A stretch of DNA of 38,265 nt from Salmonella phage S147_CPL00262: the sequence record OR896839.1; one strand, given 5' to 3'. This document shows positions 18,663 through 35,161 of this stretch, piece by piece. Both the position numbers and the translations under genes were made by a program. Numbering within the stretch: position 1 is the first letter of the stretch; the number at the start of each line of letters is the position of its first letter. The notes beneath the pieces were generated by a model. The model ran no database searches. It had not been told where the DNA came from and worked only from the letters and a program-made list of their open reading frames with translations.

Positions 18663-19570
18663 GCCTAATCACATTGAAAGACTTCGCGGAGATGCGTGAA
18701 GGTAAGCCTATGGAGAAGGGAGTGCTGGTCATGGATGGTGACTGGTTGGTATATCAGTCAATGGCTGCTGCCGAAGTTGAGACGGATTGGGGAGACGACA
18801 TTTGGACTCTTGAGTGTGACCACGCCAAGGCACGGAGCATTCTCGATTCTGCAATCGAATCGTACCGAACCCGTAAGAAGGCTTGGAGTGACGCTATGGT
18901 TGTTCTGGCGTATACCGACGATGTGAACTGGCGTAAGGTACTGGTTGATGAGACCTATAAGGAGAACCGTAAGGCGACCCGTAAGCCTGTAGGATACCGT
19001 GACTTCTTAGCGAAGCTGTGGGAGCGCGATGAGTTCATTCACATCAAAGAGGACATGCTGGAAGGTGATGACGTTATGGGCATCATTGGGTCTGGTCACG
19101 AGGTCTTCGGCTTCAAGAAAGCTGTGTTGGTCTCCTGTGACAAGGACTTCAAGACTATCCCGGACGTTGACTTCCTGTGGTGTACCACTGGTAACATCTT
19201 GACGCAGACCAAAGAGACCGCTGATTGGTGGCATCTCTTCCAGACCATCAAGGGTGATATGACTGATGGCTACTCCGGGATTCCCGGCTGGGGCGATACG
19301 GCAGAAGGTTTCCTGAATGACCCGTTCATTGTGGAGCCTGTAGAGTCCGTGTTGAAGTCCGGTAAGAACAAGGGGCAGACAGTAACCAAGTGGGTGAAGC
19401 GTGCTCCTGATGCGACTGAGACGCTGTGGGACTGCATTAAATCCATTGGTGCCAAAGCTGGGATGACCGAGCAGGAAATCATCAAGCAAGGCCAAATGGC
19501 TCGCATTCTTCGCTTCGAGGAATACAATTACATTGACAAGGAGATTTACTTGTGGACGCCGCAAAGCTGA
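18659..19570 (+). CDS. 6: 5'-3' exonuclease, gene 6
   Basis: 303-aa ORF in the position of T7 gene 6. Confidence 0.93.
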
Positions 19571-22326: not shown

Positions 22327-23259
22327 ATGGCTGAATCTAATGCAGACGTTTATGCGTCCTTCGGTGTGAACAACGCGGTAATGACCGGAAGCACACCTAC
22401 TGAACACGAACAGAATATGCTGAGTCTCGATGTTGCCGCCCGTGATGGCGATGATGCAATCGTACTTAGCGAGGAACCGAGTTCTAATAACGATGACCCT
22501 TATGCGGCTGGTGAAGACCCATTCGCCAATGAGGAAGACGATGAGGGCCGCATTCAGGTTCGTATCAGTGAAGATGGTAGTGAAGCTGAGTTCGACACTG
22601 GTAGCGATAACGCTGAGGTGGAGACCGAAGGTGAAGCCGCTGAGTTTGAGCCGCTGGGTGACACTCCAGAAGAACTGAGCCAAGTGACTGAACAATTAGG
22701 TCAGCACGAAGAAGGCTTTCAGGCGATGGTCGAGCAGGCCGTTGAGCGTGGACTGAGCGCAGAGTCTGTGACTCGCATCTACGAAGAGTACGAAGCCGAT
22801 GGTATCTCTGAGAAATCCTACGCTGAACTCGAAGCTGCTGGCTATAGTCGTGCCTTTGTGGACTCCTACATCTCCGGTCAGGAAGCTCTTGTAGACCAGT
22901 ACGTCAATCAGGTAGTTGCCTTTGCTGGTGGTAAGGAGCGCTTTAGCGCAATCCATACGCACCTTGAAGCAACCAACCCGGCTGCGGCTGAGTCCCTTGA
23001 GGCTGCCATGATGAACCGAGACTTGGCGACTATCAAAGCGATTATCAATCTGGCTGGTGAGAGTTACACGAAGAAATTCGGTAAGCCTGCCAACCGTAGT
23101 GTTACCAAGCGTGCTACTCCGGTTAAACCTGTAGCTCGTCAGAAAGAGGGCTTTACGAATCAGGCTGAGATGATTAAAGCTATGAGTGACCCGCGTTACC
23201 GTAGTGATGCTGCCTACCGTCAAATGGTAGAACAGAAGGTTATCGACTCCAGTTTCTAA
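22327..23259 (+). CDS. 9: Capsid assembly (scaffolding) protein, gene 9
   Basis: 310-aa highly acidic ORF between portal and major capsid genes. Confidence 0.92.
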   Translation: MAESNADVYASFGVNNAVMTGSTPTEHEQNMLSLDVAARDGDDAIVLSEEPSSNNDDPYAAGEDPFANEEDDEGRIQVRISEDGSEAEFDTGSDNAEVETEGEAAEFEPLGDTPEELSQVTEQLGQHEEGFQAMVEQAVERGLSAESVTRIYEEYEADGISEKSYAELEAAGYSRAFVDSYISGQEALVDQYVNQVVAFAGGKERFSAIHTHLEATNPAAAESLEAAMMNRDLATIKAIINLAGESYTKKFGKPANRSVTKRATPVKPVARQKEGFTNQAEMIKAMSDPRYRSDAAYRQMVEQKVIDSSF

Positions 23260-23280
23260 TTAACCCTCACTAAAGGGAGA
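23258..23280 (+). promoter_or_regulatory. T3-type phage RNAP promoter (phi10-equivalent)
   Basis: AATTAACCCTCACTAAAGGGAGA exact consensus, overlapping the gene 9 stop. Confidence 0.9.
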
Positions 23281-23415
23281 GACCATAGATGACTACAATG
23301 GTTGAATCACCTGAGCACAGAACTTTGTGGTCACTCCCGTAGGTGAAACATTGAGAACCAACTCGATTCAAGTAGTAACCAAACTTTTCTTTAAATTAAC
23401 ATAAGGAGATTCAAC

Positions 23416-24459
23416 ATGGCTAACATTCAAGGCGGACAGCAAATTGGTACTAATCAGGGTAAGGGTCAGTCCGCAGCGGACAAATTGGCGCTGTTCCTGA
23501 AAGTGTTCGGCGGTGAAGTCCTGACGGCTTTCGCTCGCACCTCCGTGACCATGCCTCGTCACATGCTGCGCTCTATTGCTTCTGGTAAGTCCGCACAGTT
23601 CCCTGTGATTGGTCGCACCAAAGCTGCTTACCTGAAACCGGGTGAGAACCTCGATGACAAACGTAAGGATATCAAACACACCGAGAAGGTAATCCACATT
23701 GATGGCCTGCTGACTGCGGACGTGCTGATTTACGACATTGAGGACGCGATGAACCACTATGACGTTCGCGCCGAGTACACCGCACAGTTGGGTGAATCTC
23801 TGGCGATGGCGGCTGACGGTGCTGTACTGGCTGAACTGGCTGGTCTGGTTAACCTGCCGGACGCCTCCAATGAGAACATCGAGGGTCTCGGTAAGCCTAC
23901 CGTACTGACTCTGGTTAAGCCGACCGCTGGCGACCTGACTGACCCGGTTGAGCTGGGTAAAGCGATTATCGCTCAGTTGACCGTTGCTCGTGCTGCTCTG
24001 ACCAAGAACTACGTTCCGGCTGCTGACCGTACTTTCTACACCACTCCTGATAACTACTCCGCGATTCTGGCTGCTCTGATGCCGAACGCTGCAAACTATC
24101 AGGCACTGATTGACCCTGAGCGCGGTACTATCCGTAACGTGATGGGCTTCGAAGTGGTTGAGGTTCCGCACCTGACTGCTGGTGGTGCTGGTGATGACCG
24201 TGAGGACACTCCGGCTGACCAGAAGCACGCTTTCCCGGCGACTTCCAGCACTACCGTTAAGGTTGCTCTGGATAACGTTGTTGGCCTGTTCCAGCACCGC
24301 TCTGCGGTTGGTACGGTCAAGCTGAAAGACTTGGCTCTGGAGCGCGCTCGTCGTGCGAACTATCAGGCTGACCAGATTATCGCTAAATATGCGATGGGTC
24401 ACGGCGGTCTGCGTCCAGAAGCTGCTGGCGCTATCGTTCTCCCAAAGGTGTCGGAGTAA
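23416..24459 (+). CDS. 10A: Major capsid protein 10A
   Basis: 347-aa ORF MANIQGGQQIGTNQGKG... closely matching T7 capsid protein as recalled; strong SD AAGGAGA. Confidence 0.97.
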   Translation: MANIQGGQQIGTNQGKGQSAADKLALFLKVFGGEVLTAFARTSVTMPRHMLRSIASGKSAQFPVIGRTKAAYLKPGENLDDKRKDIKHTEKVIHIDGLLTADVLIYDIEDAMNHYDVRAEYTAQLGESLAMAADGAVLAELAGLVNLPDASNENIEGLGKPTVLTLVKPTAGDLTDPVELGKAIIAQLTVARAALTKNYVPAADRTFYTTPDNYSAILAALMPNAANYQALIDPERGTIRNVMGFEVVEVPHLTAGGAGDDREDTPADQKHAFPATSSTTVKVALDNVVGLFQHRSAVGTVKLKDLALERARRANYQADQIIAKYAMGHGGLRPEAAGAIVLPKVSE

Positions 24460-24731
24460 TTCCCGACCCCACTGGAGTTACTCTTAGTCAGAAGACTATG
24501 AGCTTAGACGTTGGGGCTTCTAAAGCCCTGACTTCTACGGTAACTCCGGCTGATGCAGTACAGACAGTGACCTTTACGTCTTCCAATGCGAAGATTGCCA
24601 CGGTCGATGCCTCTGGTACTGTAACTGCTGTGGGCGCTGGCTCCGCTGACATCACTGCGACTACTGTGAATGGCCTGACGGCTGTCTGCAAGGTCACTGT
24701 GAAAGCAGTAGAGCCTCCCGTAGAAGGCTAA
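23416..24731 (+). CDS. 10B: Minor capsid protein 10B (10A with a -1 frameshift extension carrying an Ig-like Big_2-type domain)
   Basis: -1 frame continues about 94 codons beyond the slippery site; the extension has a Big_2-like pattern (TVTPADAVQTVTFTSSNAKIATVDASGTVTAVGAGSADITATT); T7 also makes 10B by -1 frameshifting. Confidence 0.55.
24441..24447 (+). other. Candidate -1 programmed ribosomal frameshift slippery heptamer C_CCA_AAG
   Basis: X_XXY_YYZ heptamer in the 10A zero frame, 10 nt before the 10A stop; the -1 frame is open from here to 24731. Confidence 0.6.
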
Positions 24732-24772
24732 GGTCTTTACCGGGGATTTACTTTCCTTCATTACTTTATGAA

Positions 24773-24810
24773 CCCCTTGGGTGCCCTCTGAGGGTATCTG
24801 AGGGGTTTTT
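24773..24810 (+). terminator. Rho-independent late terminator (Tphi-equivalent)
   Basis: GC-rich hairpin CCCCTTGGGTGCCCTCTGAGGGTATCTGAGGGG followed by TTTTTT. Confidence 0.85.
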
Positions 24811-24813
24811 TGC

Positions 24814-24836
24814 TTTAAACCCTCACTAACAGGAGG
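24814..24836 (+). promoter_or_regulatory. T3-type phage RNAP promoter (phi11-equivalent)
   Basis: TTTAAACCCTCACTAACAGGAGG. Confidence 0.75.
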
Positions 24837-24843
24837 TAACATC

Positions 24844-25434
24844 ATGCGCTCTTATGAGATGAACATTGAGACCGCAGAAGAGCTATCAGCCGTCAACGAC
24901 ATTCTGGCTTCCATCGGTGAGCCACCAGTATCAACCCTTGAGGGTGATGCGAATGCTGACGTTGCGAATGCTCGACGTGTGCTCAATAAGATTAACCGAC
25001 AGATTCAATCACGAGGATGGACATTCAATATTGAGGAAGGTGTGACTCTTCTACCGGATGCGTTCTCTGGTATGATTCCATTTAGCTCTGACTATCTGTC
25101 CGTAATGGCAACCAGCGGTCAGACCCAATATATCAACCGTGGTGGCTATCTCTACGACCGCTCTGCGAAGACCGACAGATTCCCCTCTGGTGTTCAGGTA
25201 AACCTGATTCGTCTGAGAGAGTTCGATGAGATGCCTGAGTGCTTCCGTAACTACATCGTCACCAAGGCTTCCCGCCAGTTTAACAACCGCTTCTTCGGTG
25301 CGCCGGAGGTAGACGGAGTGTTGCAGGAAGAGGAACAGGAAGCATGGCGTGCGTGCTTCGAGTACGAGCTAGACTACGGCAACTACAACATGCTGGACGG
25401 TGACGCATTCACCTCTGGTCTACTTAACCGCTAA
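24844..25434 (+). CDS. 11: Tail tubular protein A (gatekeeper), gene 11
   Basis: 196-aa ORF in the position of T7 gp11. Confidence 0.92.
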
Positions 25435-31198: not shown

Positions 31199-34100
31199 AT
31201 GAGCTACGATAAGAACAAACCTAGCGAGTTCGATGGGTTATTTCAAAAAGCGGCAGACAATCATGGGGTCTCCTATGACCTGCTTCGTAAATTAGCATTC
31301 AACGAATCCAGTTTTAATCCAAAGGCCAAATCCCCAACTGGCCCGAAGGGTCTCATGCAGTTCACCAAAGGTACAGCCACTGCGCTTGGCCTAAAGGTTA
31401 CTGACGACGATGACGATGACCGTTACAACCCTGAGTTGGCTGTGGATGCAGCCGCTCGTCACCTGAGTGACCTCATTCGGAAGTACGATGGGGATGAACT
31501 CAAAGCTGCCTTGGCATATAATCAGGGCGAGGGGCGCAACGGTGCTCCACAGATACAGGCTTATGACAAAGGCGATTGGGCTTCAATCTCTGAGGAAGGT
31601 CGTAACTATATGCGTAACCTGATGGACGTAGCTAACAGTCCTCGCAAGGGGGACTTGGAGGCGTTCGGCGGCATCACCCCAAAGGCTAAGGGCATTCCAT
31701 CGGGGGATGCATTTGCTGGAATCGGGAAGAAGCAGACGGTAGGAACTGACCTGCCGGAGTCAACTGGATTCAAAGTGGAGGGTAAAGAGCAGAAAGCACC
31801 TAACGTGCCGTATGCTAAGGATTTTTGGGAAAAGACTGGAACAACACTGGACGAGTTTAATTCTCGTTCAACCTTCTTCGGAATCGGAGATGCCACAAGT
31901 GCAGAACTTCACAACTCCGTATTGGGTGTGGCTTTTCGCGCTGCTCGTAGTGATGACGGTTTTGATTTATTCAAGGACACCATTACGCCGACTCGCTGGA
32001 ACAGCCATACGTGGACTCCAGAAGAGTTAGAGCGCATCCGTAAGGAAGTGAAGAACCCATCGTACATCAACGTAGTCACTGGAGGCTCTCCTGAGAATCT
32101 GGACGCCCTCATTAAGATGGCGAATGACAACTACGAGATGGACGCGCGGTCTGCCGATGCTGGTGTTGGTGCCAAACTTACTGCTGGTATCGTCGGTGCT
32201 GGTGTAGACCCGCTGAGTTACGTGCCGCTAGTAGGCGTAACCGGGAAGGGTCTCAAGGTGGTTAACAAGGCTTTCATTGTTGGTACTCAAAGTGCTGGCC
32301 TCGCTGTTGCCTCTGAGGGTATCCGTACATCAATTGCTGGTGGAGAAGCCCACTATGCTGATGCTGCTTTAGGCGGTCTGATGTTCGGTGCCGGGATGAG
32401 TGCAATCAGTGACGCTATCGCCGCTGGTATTCGCCGTTCCCGTGGGACTGAGGTCGTTAATGATTTCGCTCCTATGGCACACCGCTTGGAAGCCCGTGAG
32501 ACCGCTCTGAACACTGGTGGGGAAGACCTGACCCGTATGCCTAGCGAGAACCGTGTGTTCGACCGTGAGCACGCTGGCGTTGAGTATTCACCTCTGGAGA
32601 CAGAGCCGGGTGCCGTTGTGTTGCCTCAAGGTCAAATCCTGAGCGACACCAACCCGTTGAACCCTCAGACTCTTAGCGAGTTCGAGGCGGTCAACCCTGA
32701 GCGTGCCTCTCGTGGTATCTCTTTGGGCGGCTTCACTGAGATTGGCTTGAAGACTCTCCGCTCTGAGAACCCGACTGTTCGCTCCATTGCGAGTGACCTT
32801 GTGCGTTCTCCAACAGGGATGGAATCAGGCTCTAATGGTAAGTTCGGTGCGACTGCTTCTGACATTAAGGAGCGGCTCCACGCGAACAATCAGCGCACCT
32901 ACAATCAGCTTTATGATGCTGTGCGTACTGCAATGAAAGACCCTGAGTTCTCCACAGGTGGGGCAACAATGAGCCGTAAGGAAATCCGACAGGAAATCTA
33001 CAAGCGTGCAGCCTTGGCGATTGAGCGACCTGAGCTTCAAGCAAACCTGACAAAGGGTGAGCGGAACGTGATGAACATCCTCAAGCAACACTTTGACCTC
33101 AAACGTGAAATCATGGAGAACCCGTCAATCTTCGGCAACACCAAGGCGGTCAGTATCTTCCCCGGCTCACGCCACAAGGGAACCTACGTGCCAAACGTGT
33201 ACGACCGCGCTATCAAGATTGAGATGGTTAAACGTTACGGTAATGATGGCTTGCAGCGAGCAATCGCGGAGTCATGGTTGACGTCTTATCGTGCTCGTCC
33301 AGAAGTCAAGGCGAGGGTCGATGAGTACCTGATGGAACTTAACGGTCTCAAATCCGTGCAGGAAGTTACGCCTGAGATGGTGCAGAAGCACGCGATGGAT
33401 AAGGCGTATGGTATTTCACACACTGACCAGTTCTCTGCCTCCTCTGTCATTGAGGATAACATTGAGGGTCTGGTGGGTATCGAGAACAACAACTTCTTGG
33501 AAGCCCGTAACATGTTCGACAGTGACATGGCGGTGACTCTCCCTGATGGTAACACGTTCTCTGTGAATGACCTGCGTACCTATGACATGGCTGAAATTCT
33601 GCCTGCATACGACCGACGAGTAGATGGTGATGTTGCAATCATGGGCGGTTCCGGTAAGACTACCAAAGACCTGAAAGATGAAATCATGGCGCTGGATAAG
33701 CAGTCAGAGGGTAACGGCACACTGAAAGGTGAAGTGGAAGCTCTCAAGGATACCGTGAAGATTCTGACTGGTCGTGCTCGTAGGAACCCGGAAGGCGCTT
33801 GGGGTACAGCCCTGCGCTCCGTAAATGACCTCACGTTCTTTGCTAAGAACGCCTATATGGGCGCACAGAACGTTACTGAAATCGCTGGTATGCTGGCGAA
33901 GGGTAACGTCTCTGCGATAACTCATGGCATCCCTATGATTAACGATTGGGTCAACCGTGGTAAACCGCTTCGTGCCTCTGAGATTAAGGAGATACACGGG
34001 ATGGTGTTCGGTAAGGAACTAGACCAACTAATCCGTCCGGGACGTGAAGACCACGTGCGCCGACTCCGGGAGTCTACGGACACCAGCGCTGCGGTTGCCA

Positions 34101-35161
34101 ATGTGGTCGGTACGATTCGTTTCGGCACTCAAGAGTTGGCTGCACGTTCTCCTTGGACAATGCTCCTAAACGGAACATCAAACTACATTCTTGATGCTGC
34201 CCGTCAGGGTGTGCTTGGGGATGTGGCTGGAGCGGCCCTTGCTGGGAAAGCCTCTAAGTTCGGTAAGGCAAACTACCTTAAGTCTGCCTCTATCAGCCCT
34301 GAGCAGTGGAATGGAATCAAGCAGTTGTTCAGAGACCATGCGACTCGTGGAGAAGACGGTAAGTTCACCATTCGTGACAAACAGGCTTTCGCTAACGACC
34401 CACGTTCAATGGACTTGTGGCGACTGGCTGATAAGGTGGCGGATGAGACTATACTGCGACCTCACAAGGTTTCCTCACAGGACTCCAAAGCGTTCGGTGC
34501 AGGGGTGAAGATGGTGATGCAGTTTAAGAACTTCGTCATCAAGTCCCTTAACTCCCGGTTCGTCCGTAGCTTCTACGAGGCAACTAAGAACAACCGTGCG
34601 TTAGACCAAGCGTTGACTCATATCATCTCTTTGGGTCTAGCTGGTGGTTACTACGTTGCGCAGGCGCACCTTAAGGCCGCAAGCCTACAGGAGCACAAAC
34701 GTAAGGAGTACCTCAAGAACGCCCTTGACCCTAAGATGATTGCTCATGCATCAATCTCTCGTAGTTCACACTTAGGCTCACCATTGAGTATCTACGACAT
34801 GTTCGCTGGGATGGTTGGTAGCGATACCTATAAGTACACCCGCTCTACTGTACTCCCTAAAGAGTCCGAGAAGCGCGACCCTAACAAGGCAGTGACAGGT
34901 AGACAGGTGGCTTCAACTATCGCAGGTGCAATTGGTGAGCAGGTTCCGGGTTTAGGTTTTGTTGGCTCTGTGGGTGCAACAGCTATTAACGCCGCTTCCC
35001 TGCTGTCTTCTCCAAACAAGGCTACCGCTCTGGAGTTCCGTACAGGACTCTTCAACACCTCTCGTGAGTTGATTCCTAATGACCCGCTATCGCAGCAACT
35101 CATTATGAAAATCTACGAGGCCAACGGTATCCGCATAAAGGAGACGCCGAAGAAACAATAA
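31199..35161 (+). CDS. 16: Internal virion (core) protein gp16 with N-terminal lytic transglycosylase domain
   Basis: 1320-aa ORF; N-terminal SLT-like motif ...AFNESSFNPKAKSPTGPKGLMQFTKGTA... Confidence 0.93.
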   Translation: MSYDKNKPSEFDGLFQKAADNHGVSYDLLRKLAFNESSFNPKAKSPTGPKGLMQFTKGTATALGLKVTDDDDDDRYNPELAVDAAARHLSDLIRKYDGDELKAALAYNQGEGRNGAPQIQAYDKGDWASISEEGRNYMRNLMDVANSPRKGDLEAFGGITPKAKGIPSGDAFAGIGKKQTVGTDLPESTGFKVEGKEQKAPNVPYAKDFWEKTGTTLDEFNSRSTFFGIGDATSAELHNSVLGVAFRAARSDDGFDLFKDTITPTRWNSHTWTPEELERIRKEVKNPSYINVVTGGSPENLDALIKMANDNYEMDARSADAGVGAKLTAGIVGAGVDPLSYVPLVGVTGKGLKVVNKAFIVGTQSAGLAVASEGIRTSIAGGEAHYADAALGGLMFGAGMSAISDAIAAGIRRSRGTEVVNDFAPMAHRLEARETALNTGGEDLTRMPSENRVFDREHAGVEYSPLETEPGAVVLPQGQILSDTNPLNPQTLSEFEAVNPERASRGISLGGFTEIGLKTLRSENPTVRSIASDLVRSPTGMESGSNGKFGATASDIKERLHANNQRTYNQLYDAVRTAMKDPEFSTGGATMSRKEIRQEIYKRAALAIERPELQANLTKGERNVMNILKQHFDLKREIMENPSIFGNTKAVSIFPGSRHKGTYVPNVYDRAIKIEMVKRYGNDGLQRAIAESWLTSYRARPEVKARVDEYLMELNGLKSVQEVTPEMVQKHAMDKAYGISHTDQFSASSVIEDNIEGLVGIENNNFLEARNMFDSDMAVTLPDGNTFSVNDLRTYDMAEILPAYDRRVDGDVAIMGGSGKTTKDLKDEIMALDKQSEGNGTLKGEVEALKDTVKILTGRARRNPEGAWGTALRSVNDLTFFAKNAYMGAQNVTEIAGMLAKGNVSAITHGIPMINDWVNRGKPLRASEIKEIHGMVFGKELDQLIRPGREDHVRRLRESTDTSAAVANVVGTIRFGTQELAARSPWTMLLNGTSNYILDAARQGVLGDVAGAALAGKASKFGKANYLKSASISPEQWNGIKQLFRDHATRGEDGKFTIRDKQAFANDPRSMDLWRLADKVADETILRPHKVSSQDSKAFGAGVKMVMQFKNFVIKSLNSRFVRSFYEATKNNRALDQALTHIISLGLAGGYYVAQAHLKAASLQEHKRKEYLKNALDPKMIAHASISRSSHLGSPLSIYDMFAGMVGSDTYKYTRSTVLPKESEKRDPNKAVTGRQVASTIAGAIGEQVPGLGFVGSVGATAINAASLLSSPNKATALEFRTGLFNTSRELIPNDPLSQQLIMKIYEANGIRIKETPKKQ

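Follow-up and report, generated by a model that had tools for sequence, protein, structure and literature searches.

In the T3-like Teetrevirus analysed here, whose whole stretch of 38,265 nucleotides (Salmonella phage S147_CPL00262, OR896839.1) we call the window, a programmed −1 frameshift at the heptamer C_CCA_AAG very probably yields the minor capsid protein 10B, which carries a Big_2 Ig-like domain. This reading was the core of the original prediction, and it is supported by a Pfam match, by the slip sites curated in relatives, and by selection on the −1 frame. The sequence features of the T3-type capsid frameshift with its Ig tail are confirmed here, but the system is ordinary and already known; the finding is not new because the curated records of T3 and phiYeO3-12, a review of 2016, and the annotation of phage Patroon already describe it. 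The review presents the extension of the T3 coat protein by −1 frameshifting as an Ig-like tail (PMC5009743). The main value of the analysis for this window is a corrected annotation.

Gene 10 and its slippery site

The features of the gene 10 transcript that bear on the shift are as follows.

23259..23280, plus strand: T3-type late promoter phi10, a perfect match to ATTAACCCTCACTAAAGGGAGA, driving the gene 10 transcript
23416..24459, plus strand: gene 10A, major capsid protein of 347 aa and 36.9 kDa (ORF list, Pfam, PDB, Shine-Dalgarno)
24441..24447, plus strand: slippery heptamer C_CCA_AAG, predicted −1 shift site (X_XXY_YYZ register, curated T3 and phiYeO3-12 sites)
24770..24815, plus strand: T-phi intrinsic terminator, end of the gene 10 mRNA (stem 24770-24808 plus U tract; terminator scan)

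The promoter motif ATTAACCCTCACTAAAGGGAGA was matched 13 times in the window, against 0 matches expected by chance. The 10A product matched the Pfam family Gp10A-like with 371 bits, and T7-like capsid proteins in the PDB with E-values of 5.7e-181 and 1.2e-171. Its Shine-Dalgarno pairing is strong (−9.3 kcal/mol), its stop codon is the TAA at 24457-24459, and T-phi is kept in all relatives aligned.

The original prediction had placed CCCAAAG in the zero-frame register, 10 nt before the 10A stop. Base 24441 is indeed the third base of a CTC codon in the 10A frame, which gives the register C_CCA_AAG at 24441-24447, at that distance from the TAA. Among the real genes of the window, no other strong in-register heptamer opens a long −1 frame; one further match of this kind exists, in a short ORF nested inside the gene at 31199-35161. 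The curated annotation of T3 (X17255, AJ318471) places a 'frameshift at 19084', 15 nt before the end of 10A; for phiYeO3-12 the entry is 'ribosome slippage at 22682-22687; -1 frameshift', at 13-18 nt from the 10A end. Both curated positions map to 24441-24446 of the window, with identical flanking sequence. Production of 10B at a different site and frame in close relatives had been named as evidence against the prediction; T3 and phiYeO3-12 use the same heptamer and the same frame. The heptamer is unbroken in 13 of the 14 relatives of the window type, and the core of the slip site conserved across relatives and lineages is A_AAG only.

The heptamer itself is well suited to slippage. C_CCA_AAG was the most efficient heptamer in E. 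coli, reaching up to 54% with a pseudoknot, and A_AAG the best slip tetramer for tRNA-Lys (PMC4066793). C_CCA_AAG has also been described as highly shift-prone (PMC5009743), and T3 and phiYeO3-12 frameshift at lysyl residues (PMC2579914).

The site contains short runs of three C and three A, which raises the question of whether RNA polymerase, not the ribosome, changes the frame by transcriptional realignment. Runs of 3 nt are far shorter than the homopolymers known to cause transcriptional slippage, and we rejected it from the sequence on that ground. Nothing specific supports it, and both the exact X_XXY_YYZ register of the motif and the invariance of A_AAG, the tRNA-Lys slip tetramer, across lineages speak against it, so that its probability is close to nil. 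Readthrough of the 10A stop codon was likewise rejected, because the extension lies in the −1 frame and not in the 0 frame.

Coding capacity of the −1 frame

Beyond the slip site, the −1 frame contains two features.

24447..24731, plus strand: predicted 10B-specific extension of 94 codons and a stop, beginning with the linker GVGVIPDP (translation, dN/dS, codon usage)
24471..24692, plus strand: Big_2 (bacterial Ig-like group 2) domain, extension residues 9-82 (Pfam, PHROG, PDB)

Read from G24447, the −1 frame, which is already open from 24387, runs to 24731; this agrees with the predicted opening of about 94 codons ending upstream of T-phi, and a gap of 38 nt separates it from the T-phi stem. 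Such an opening is rare. Within the genes of the window the −1 frame meets a stop every ~11.5 codons, and the longest of the 914 open −1 runs found there has 92 codons, short of the 94 seen here (95th percentile 28).

The substitution pattern points to purifying selection on the −1 frame. Its dN/dS is 0.20-0.22 (0.22 against the T3 allele), and synonymous sites are saturated (pS 0.66). Of the 34 columns that vary, 17 hold silent changes when read in the −1 frame, 10 when read in the 0 frame and 2 when read in the +1 frame. The codon-usage log-odds of the extension are positive in the −1 frame only. In one relative, L025, two changes leave the −1 frame protein unaltered yet make an earlier 10A stop. 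The arrangement also extends beyond the genus, with at least 37 codons of open −1 frame beyond the 10A stop in 79 of 80 T7-group loci; the +1 frame is open for 2-17 codons only.

A profile search of the extension against Pfam Big_2, which had been proposed as a check of its Ig-like character, gave a match well above threshold. The extension scored 58.2 bits on PF02368 (E 7.8e-16, profile positions 3-78 of 79), where the curated gathering threshold is 22.8 bits. It also matched PHROG 215, 'structural protein with Ig domain' (94.9 bits), and Big_2 domains of a phage short tail fiber in the PDB (9cuy, E 1.7e-11). By these Pfam, PHROG and PDB sequence matches, the domain family of the tail is settled. 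The tails of T3 and phiYeO3-12 score 40-42 bits on Big_2. A single-sequence AlphaFold2 model of the 94-aa tail was all-beta with six strands, at low confidence (mean pLDDT 51.4). When the 438-aa fusion was used as a query, no natural in-frame fusion of capsid and Ig domain appeared among the best 120 protein clusters, all of which were 337-354 aa long and covered the 10A part only.

These data bear on the possibility that no 10B is made and that the −1 frame stays open by chance or as a relic without function. The genus can do without the Ig tail, since some Teetreviruses have another tail in its place, and the 10B of T7 has been reported as non-essential in the laboratory. Against this stand the geometric probability of a 94-codon open −1 frame (~2e-4), the Big_2 E-value of 8e-16, a dN/dS of ~0.2 over saturated synonymous divergence, the retention of the heptamer in nearly all window-type relatives, and that of the −1 arrangement across genera. 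We consider a relic or a chance ORF extremely improbable.

The ORF at ATG 24498 and its annotation

The distal part of the extension is present in public records under other names.

24498..24731, plus strand: 77-aa ORF, distal part of 10B (in GenBank a separate gene, 'major tail protein')

The GenBank record of Klebsiella phage GlastosBack labels 24498-24731 'major tail protein'. Most public records have a separate CDS here, called 'major tail protein', 'minor capsid protein' or 'hypothetical protein', and three inspected Teetrevirus records annotate an opposite-strand ORF instead. Patroon (MK608335), which is 98.9% identical, annotates a joined 'Frame shift product'.

These annotations, together with the presence of the ATG and a score of the 77-aa product alone above the Big_2 threshold (51.2 bits), would favour an independent small gene giving a free 77-aa protein. 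The start is poor, however. Its Shine-Dalgarno pairing is −1.0 kcal/mol, compared with −7.3 to −11.6 for genes 9-12, and 81% of the ATG triplets in the window pair as well or better. The ORF also misses the opening strand of the domain, which corresponds to Big_2 profile positions 3-12; with the 17 residues upstream added, the scores rise from 51.2 to 58.2 bits on Pfam and from 84.3 to 94.9 bits on PHROG 215. The stretch between heptamer and ATG is conserved as −1 frame protein out to Pseudomonas phages, and PfSW6 and Kurepalu-2 have no equivalent start codon. An independent start at ATG 24498 was rejected on the poor Shine-Dalgarno pairing and on the domain beginning upstream, and we regard a free 77-aa protein of 7.4 kDa as very unlikely. 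The stretch 24498-24731 is not a 'major tail protein' gene and is the tail of the minor capsid protein 10B. Several of the mislabelled Teetrevirus records are Klebsiella phages of the therapy-candidate kind, where capsid adherence, clearance and immunogenicity matter.

Search for a frameshift stimulator

Stimulators generally begin 5-8 nt downstream of the heptamer (PMC4066793). The structure nearest to the heptamer is the following.

24450..24467, plus strand: small hairpin GTCGG/CCGAC with an 8-nt loop (predicted fold; not supported as a frameshift stimulator)

The original prediction had this stem beginning 3 nt after the heptamer and acting as a possible stimulator. The fold was found, at −7.1 kcal/mol (z = −3.0) and bettered by only 1 of 200 shuffles, and the stretch is 100% identical between window-type and T3-type phages; the rest of the proposal did not hold up, as the spacer measured 2 nt and both spacing and conservation argue against the stimulator role. 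A 2-nt spacer falls short of the usual 5-8 nt (PMC4066793), and the hairpin would presumably be largely unwound in the mRNA channel while AAG is in the A site. In the relative L026, a 15-nt in-frame deletion takes out the whole hairpin and keeps the heptamer and the −1 linkage; in L025, its central pair is disrupted by changes silent in the −1 frame. The hairpin is not used in the minimum-energy fold of T3, and Pf-10, PfSW6, SH1 and AP5 have no equivalent. The nucleotide conservation is accounted for by the linker GVGVIPDPTG, which is conserved as protein in Pf-10 with different nucleotides. Because of the spacing and the natural deletion and disruption variants, the hairpin was rejected as a stimulator, and a frameshift that depends on it is unlikely.

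Other candidates fared no better. A 3' structure at 24470-24552 is stable (z = −4.2), but it begins only after 22 nt and has no conserved counterpart in T3, L026 or Pf-10. A recurrent hairpin at 24509-24531 was found by RNAalifold in 8 sequences at −4.0 kcal/mol and was unsupported, with a covariation term of −0.22. No upstream Shine-Dalgarno-like stimulator was found (anti-SD pairing −1.5 kcal/mol), and Rfam at gathering thresholds gave no match anywhere in the window. Neither of the stimulatory elements of a canonical −1 PRF signal, a hairpin or pseudoknot 5-8 nt downstream or a Shine-Dalgarno-like sequence 6-17 nt upstream that relatives conserve, was found at the site.

In reporter constructs, heptamers without a stimulator shifted at only ~2-10 times the background of 0.055% (PMC4066793). 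As such heptamers are weak and no canonically spaced stimulator was found, the efficiency of frameshifting is not predictable here. The stimulator question is the same as for the long-range effect reported in T7, where frameshifting depends on CCCC in T-phi, more than 200 nt away (PMC5009743).

Predicted synthesis of 10B

We propose that one gene 10 mRNA gives two proteins. Most ribosomes would stop at 24457-24459 after the 347-aa 10A. A minority would back up by one base on C_CCA_AAG while CCA occupies the P site and AAG the A site; the tRNA for lysine would then re-pair on AAA instead of AAG, and that for proline on CCC instead of CCA. The slipped ribosomes would then continue GGU-GUC-GGA in the −1 frame for 94 further codons. 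The predicted product, join(23416..24447,24447..24731), would consist of 10A residues 1-344, the linker GVGVIPDP and the Big_2 domain, with 438 aa and 45.6 kDa as compared with 36.9 kDa for 10A, and is predicted to read ...AAGAIVLPKGVGVIPDPTGV... across the junction. It is expected to co-assemble with 10A, which would place the Ig domain on the outer surface of a fraction of the capsid subunits. The domain so displayed is a putative weak adhesin for surface carbohydrates, by analogy with other Ig-like decorations of phages.

At the level of nucleotide and protein sequence, the evidence shows the slip site with its −1 frame, the Big_2 domain, and purifying selection that acts on this frame; homology suggests that the shift actually occurs in this phage. 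T3 has been reported to make two capsid products from gene 10 (PMC5009743); the SH2 GenBank record carries 'No experimental evidence'. The tryptic peptide GVGVIPDPTGVTLSQK is encoded in the −1 frame at 24447-24494 and cannot derive from the annotated 77-aa ORF, because it lies upstream of ATG 24498.

Exchange of the 10B tail

Comparison with phiYeO3-12 delimited one further feature.

24480..24772 (about), plus strand: exchangeable 10B-tail cassette, Ig body and 3'UTR (replaced relative to T3 and phiYeO3-12)

Nucleotide identity to phiYeO3-12 is 97.0% in 10A and 91.8% over the first 49 nt of the extension, falls to 56.1% in the Ig body and 46% in the 3'UTR, and recovers to 88% in T-phi and 97.6% in gene 11. 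Judged from this profile, the Ig module at about 24480-24772 is a swapped cassette between flanks of ~97% identity.

Different tails occur at the same position elsewhere. Other Teetreviruses have a T7-type helical tail there; tails of this type, with ...LTPQQKAA(R/I)TRA..., are present in 32 of the 80 T7-group loci and in the Teetreviruses SH1 and AP5. Pseudomonas T7-like phages have homologous Big_2 tails in the −1 frame, entered through other slip sites (A_AAG or G_GTT_TTC). Among the tails seen are a helical one of 45 aa, a tandem Big_2 (Pf-10), an unclassified 96-aa module and, in Teetrevirus, two or more Big_2 alleles, including that of the window. There is about an even chance that the 3' end of gene 10 serves as a conserved low-copy display slot across the T7 group, in which the slip site, A_AAG or G_GTT_TTC, keeps its place and always opens the −1 frame, and tails are swapped by recombination, with the conserved 10A end or linker on one side and T-phi on the other. 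If so, the window allele would be one interchangeable adhesion module, and co-circulating Klebsiella phages would differ in capsid surface chemistry by cassette exchange and not by point mutation. An exchangeable 10B tail behind a conserved slip site may also be of use in phage display or engineering.

The Pseudomonas putida phages Roomu-1 and Kurepalu-2 have a tail of ~470 aa, made up of Big_2, a GDSL/SGNH-like hydrolase and an unassigned C-terminal region; joined to the capsid protein it would give a product of ~815 aa and ~88 kDa. It would be a capsid-tethered enzyme, as predicted from its domains, and points to undescribed enzymes of this kind in Pseudomonas phages.

Comparison with known systems

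The closest known systems are T3 and phiYeO3-12, which have the same heptamer as the window at the same distance (10 nt) from the 10A stop. They also share some 45 nt at the start of the −1 frame, the linker GVGVIPDPTGVTLSQKTM and a Big_2 domain, and in all of them T-phi comes directly after the tail; their 10A is 97% identical in nucleotides. They differ in the Ig body, which is another allele with 56% of nucleotides and 54% of amino acids identical beyond residue 18; their extension has 89 aa compared with 94 aa here, and the window 3'UTR is ~106 nt shorter and unrelated. The window Ig allele is about equally close to the Big_2 of Pseudomonas phage Pf-10 (57%) and to that of T3. Patroon (MK608335), phiYe-F10 and Citrobacter phage SH2 have the same Ig allele, with 98-99% nt identity over the gene 10 region, and differ essentially in annotation only.

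In T7, which has a homologous arrangement, a −1 shift within the last few codons of 10A likewise yields a minor capsid protein that ends before T-phi. T7 differs in slipping at G_GUU_UUC, where the window has GTT CTC; the Phe codon concerned precedes the T3 site by one to two codons. Its tail is short (44-57 aa) and, as noted in the review, not Ig-like (PMC5009743). Neither the G_GUU_UUC site nor a short non-Ig tail, which mark the T7-type 10B, was found in the window.

Lactobacillus phage A2 and Listeria phages A118 and A500 also place a C-terminal Ig-like domain on a fraction of the major structural subunits by recoding, but on unrelated capsid or tail proteins, at other slip sites, and sometimes by a +1 shift. 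Ig-like domains appended by frameshift appear to move by recombination (PMC5009743).

T4 Hoc and similar decorations also have Ig-like domains on the capsid surface, and weak binding to glycans or mucus has been proposed for such decorations (PMC7602432). The likeness to these mucus- or glycan-adhering proteins lies in the domain family alone, and the putative function is taken from reviews. Hoc is a separate capsid-binding protein, whereas here the domain is predicted to be a covalent part of some capsid subunits.

A slippery heptamer opens a long -1 frame at the end of gene 10A

The gene 10 region of the window (23300-24900) was 100% identical to that of Klebsiella phage GlastosBack (OR896841.1, 38,264 bp; Autographiviridae, Studiervirinae, Teetrevirus), whose record coordinates are shifted by one base. 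The window phage is T3-like, and the T3 RNA polymerase promoter consensus was matched 13 times in the window, against 0 expected by chance.

Features of the gene 10 region (window positions, presented strand)
23259-23280, phi10 promoter, a perfect match to the T3 RNA polymerase consensus
23416-24459, gene 10A, encoding the 347-aa major capsid protein (Pfam Gp10A-like, 371 bits; PDB T7-like capsid proteins, best E 5.7e-181)
24441-24447, slippery heptamer CCCAAAG, read as C_CCA_AAG in the 10A frame (24441 is a third codon base)

The 10A stop codon TAA (24457-24459) starts 10 nt past the end of the heptamer. From G24447 the -1 frame is open for 94 codons (GVGVIPDPTGVTLSQKTMSLDVG...VEPPVEG) up to a stop at 24729-24731, and the stem of the T-phi terminator starts at 24770. 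The original prediction had placed a -1 frameshift here, and direct checking found its coordinates, register, extension length and sequence all correct. The predicted fusion of 10A and extension has 438 aa and 45.6 kDa, compared with 36.9 kDa for 10A. In the -1 frame of window genes stops occur about once per 11.5 codons, and the longest of 914 open -1 runs inside these genes has 92 codons (95th percentile 28), short of the 94 at the heptamer; an open -1 frame of 94 codons has a geometric probability of about 2e-4.

Among the seven in-register X_XXY_YYZ heptamers of the window (Y = A or T), CCCAAAG at 24441 was the only strong site in a real gene that opened a long -1 frame. GGGAAAG at 34244 was rejected; it lies inside a short ORF nested in the gene at 31199-35161, and its long -1 frame is that gene itself. 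The same gene, which from its size and position we take to encode a gp16-like internal virion protein, holds a second in-register C_CCA_AAG (31678-31684). The -1 frame closes there after one codon, so that slippage would only truncate the protein.

The extension encodes an Ig-like domain

The extension had been read as a Big_2 domain, and the Pfam search bore this out with 58.2 bits (E 7.8e-16; cut-off 22.8 bits) over extension residues 9-82, or profile positions 3-78 of 79. The top PHROG was 215, "structural protein with Ig domain" (head and packaging), at 94.9 bits. Big_2 matches among solved structures were a phage short tail fiber (9cuy, E 1.7e-11) and, more weakly, intimin; AlphaFold2 without an alignment returned an all-beta model at a low pLDDT of 51, and the domain assignment does not draw on it.

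In the GlastosBack record, 24498-24731 is entered as a separate 77-aa "major tail protein", which would make it an independent gene starting at ATG 24498. Several results argue against such a gene. Its ATG pairs with the anti-SD at merely -1.0 kcal/mol, compared with -7.3 to -11.6 for genes 9, 10, 11 and 12, and of the ATG triplets in the window, 81% pair at least as well. Without the 17 residues upstream of its ATG, the 77-aa product misses Big_2 profile positions 3-12; with them, the Big_2 score rose from 51.2 to 58.2 bits and that of PHROG 215 from 84.3 to 94.9 bits. Between heptamer and ATG, the -1 frame is conserved at the protein level out to Pseudomonas phages while the nucleotides differ, and some of these phages lack an equivalent start codon. 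Across 14 sequences carrying the Ig allele of the window (window-type), 34 columns vary; the variation is silent in 17 of them when read in the -1 frame, in 10 when read in the 0 frame of 10A and in 2 when read in the +1 frame. Comparing the window allele with that of T3 gave a dN/dS of 0.22, with synonymous sites saturated (pS 0.66), and codon-usage log-odds were positive in the -1 frame only. In the metagenomic locus L025, two substitutions just 3' of the heptamer leave the -1 protein unchanged yet create an earlier 10A stop, so selection maintains the -1 reading in this variant. The analysis confirms the observation and, the hairpin excepted, supports its interpretation as a -1 frameshift into an Ig-like extension.

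Public annotation of the 10B tail (window 24498-24731; comparison loci L102-L109) is inconsistent between records. It is named "major tail protein" in GlastosBack, KLB7 and Keithstache, and hypothetical, structural or minor capsid protein in other sibling records. Koku_002, HMGUsm2 and ZCEA1 (3 of the records inspected) have a 258-nt ORF on the opposite strand instead, and only the Patroon, T3 and phiYeO3-12 records, among those inspected, join the tail to 10A. The "major tail protein" label arose by transitive annotation and is wrong; it comes from the promiscuous Ig domain, which also matches tail-protein PHROGs.

The proposed hairpin is unlikely to act as a stimulator

A GTCGG/CCGAC stem had been proposed to stimulate slippage. 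The stem exists, folding at -7.1 kcal/mol (z = -3.0), but its relevance to frameshifting is unlikely in view of its spacing, its loss in other loci and its absence from the T3 fold. The spacer is 2 nt rather than the 3 nt originally counted, and stimulators usually begin 5-8 nt downstream (PMC4066793); judging from ribosome geometry, the hairpin would be partly unwound with AAG in the A site. The metagenomic contig L026 (1194-1203; IMGVR_UViG_3300038674_000011) is a natural T3-type variant in which a 15-nt in-frame deletion right after the heptamer removes the hairpin. Its 10A stop adjoins the slip site (C_CCA_AAG_TGA), and its Big_2 tail is still -1-linked. The central pair of the stem is broken in L025, and the minimum-energy fold of T3 makes no use of the hairpin. 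The stretch is conserved because it encodes the linker between heptamer and domain.

Folding of L026 (z = -0.9) and of Pf-10 (z = -0.6) revealed no comparable structure, no SD-like sequence was found upstream of the slip site, and the Rfam search gave no match. A stable structure at 24470-24552 (z = -4.2) was rejected as a stimulator, as it starts too far off and is not conserved; a recurrent 10-bp hairpin at 24509-24531 was rejected as a conserved element, its covariation not being meaningful. The RNA of the 10B tail and T-phi (24430-24815) is unusually structured as a whole (-156.5 kcal/mol, z = -5.3 relative to shuffles), and no conserved RNA element was demonstrable within it. In reporter constructs, heptamers without a stimulator gave only about 2-10 times a 0.055% background (PMC4066793), which leaves two options, low-level production of 10B or the action of an element not yet recognised. 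In T7, frameshifting reportedly involves a CCCC situated more than 200 nt away, in T-phi (PMC5009743); the T-phi of the window has it too (24773-24776).

The tail as a cassette among T7-group phages

By its pattern of sequence identity, the 10B tail of the window reads as a swapped cassette. Nucleotide identity to phiYeO3-12 is 97.0% in 10A and 97.6% in gene 11; between the two it runs from 91.8% (first 49 nt of the extension) through 56.1% (Ig body) and 46% (3'UTR) to 88% (T-phi). Past residue 18, the Ig domain shares 54% identity with T3 and 57% with Pf-10. In the phage collection, the window-type tail occurred in 40 records and the T3-type tail (the allele of T3 and phiYeO3-12) in 16, each at >=90% aa identity, and the SH1-type helical tail in 35 at >=95%. 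UK Klebsiella isolates deposited together under consecutive accessions differ in their cassettes, Keithstache having the Ig tail and Keithsmous the helical one.

In a wider sample of 80 T7-group capsid-gene loci from IMG/VR, the -1 frame was open for at least 37 codons beyond the 10A stop in 79, and the +1 frame closed after 2-17 codons. Slip sites fell into two main classes, G_GTT_TTC or a one-base variant (T7 type) and C_CCA_AAG (T3 type). Relative to the T7 position, where T3-like phages have GTT CTC (CTG GTT TTC in T7-like phages such as locus L081, vs ATC GTT CTC CCA AAG at window 24433-24447), the T3-type site is displaced by one to two codons in the 3' direction. The slip site appears to have shifted position with the -1 output frame retained.

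The tails were of three main types, a 96-97-aa module in 41 loci, the short helical tail of T7 type in 32, and the Big_2 tail of T3 type. The first and commonest, HLGLSVNTFSARMVTPPEYEVHTVAIGG... behind G_GTT_TTC (41/80 loci; L028 and 40 others, such as L040 and L043-L052), had no match in Pfam and is possibly one more capsid display module, as yet unclassified. Homologous Big_2 tails are found in the -1 frame of Pseudomonas T7-like phages behind C_GAA_AAG (Pf-10, Roomu-1), T_GCA_AAG (PfSW6) and G_GTT_TTC (Kurepalu-2).

Within Teetrevirus, Citrobacter phage SH1 (L110) has T_GCA_AAG directly followed by TAA, and Yersinia phage AP5 (L111) has G_CCA_AAG. Both have similar T7-type helical tails in the -1 frame (...ELTPAQKAAITRARNKALKEATE in SH1), so at least three 10B cassettes circulate in the genus. 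The SH1-SH5 paper describes SH1 as without a minor capsid ORF; contrary to that paper, SH1 does have a -1-frame tail. Erwinia phage vB_Ea1_ZCEA1 (PV804821; L108, ~1140-1150) has C_CAA_AAG, with Pro to Gln in 10A and an intact window-type Ig tail; the change either leaves a weaker site that slips on A_AAG alone or reflects a sequencing error. Lysine-type sites share A_AAG as their invariant core, which in E. coli is the best slip motif for a single tRNA (PMC4066793).

Roomu-1 (PP496431; L019, 1489-2913) and Kurepalu-2 (PP496477; L021, 1501-2913) have a -1-frame ORF of ~472 aa in the capsid gene, entered from C_GAA_AAG and G_GTT_TTC, respectively. It comprises Big_2, a GDSL/SGNH-like hydrolase (Lipase_GDSL_2 in Roomu-1, 38.5 bits; cut-off 32.9 bits) and ~200 residues without family assignment. 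No start codon with a Shine-Dalgarno was found ahead of the Big_2 domain in either phage. From its sequence, the ORF probably specifies a capsid-tethered esterase made by frameshifting, which goes unmentioned in the paper describing the collection.

Proposed mechanism and known frameshift cases

In the proposed mechanism, tRNA-Pro and tRNA-Lys would slip -1 in tandem on C_CCA_AAG, and a minority 438-aa 10B would co-assemble with 10A. In T7 capsids and T7 display the C-terminus faces outwards, which would place the Big_2 domain on the outside of the capsid. The standard hypothesis on Ig-like decorations of phages has them adhere weakly to surface glycans (PMC7602432), and the 10B tail may do likewise. 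Its replaceability within the genus hints at a role that is accessory and depends on the niche. The analysis provides a corrected annotation, evidence against the proposed stimulator, and a view of the tail as a cassette, together with the side observations tied to it.

In E. coli, C_CCA_AAG shifts very readily (PMC5009743), and C_CC.A_AA.G ranked there as the most efficient heptamer, reaching 54% with a strong pseudoknot (PMC4066793). In T3, -1 frameshifting gives the coat protein an Ig-like extension, and the extension of T7 is not Ig-like (PMC5009743); T3 and phiYeO3-12 shift at lysyl residues (PMC2579914). The curated T3 record X17255 notes a "frameshift at 19084", which is 15 nt short of where 10A ends, T3 record AJ318471 a "frameshift due to ribosome sliding", and the phiYeO3-12 record "ribosome slippage at 22682-22687; -1 frameshift"; the annotated slip positions of both phages correspond to window 24441-24446. 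T3, phiYeO3-12 and the window do not differ in the heptamer or in the ~45 nt that follow it, and the T3 and phiYeO3-12 tails are likewise Big_2 (39.9 and 41.6 bits). Relatives might have made 10B at another site or in another frame; these two share both with the window, which upholds the predicted slip and means that the finding was already known. The phenomenon is established for T3 and phiYeO3-12, and it is annotated in a near-identical phage, Patroon, which has 98.9% identity to the window here and carries a joined "Frame shift product".
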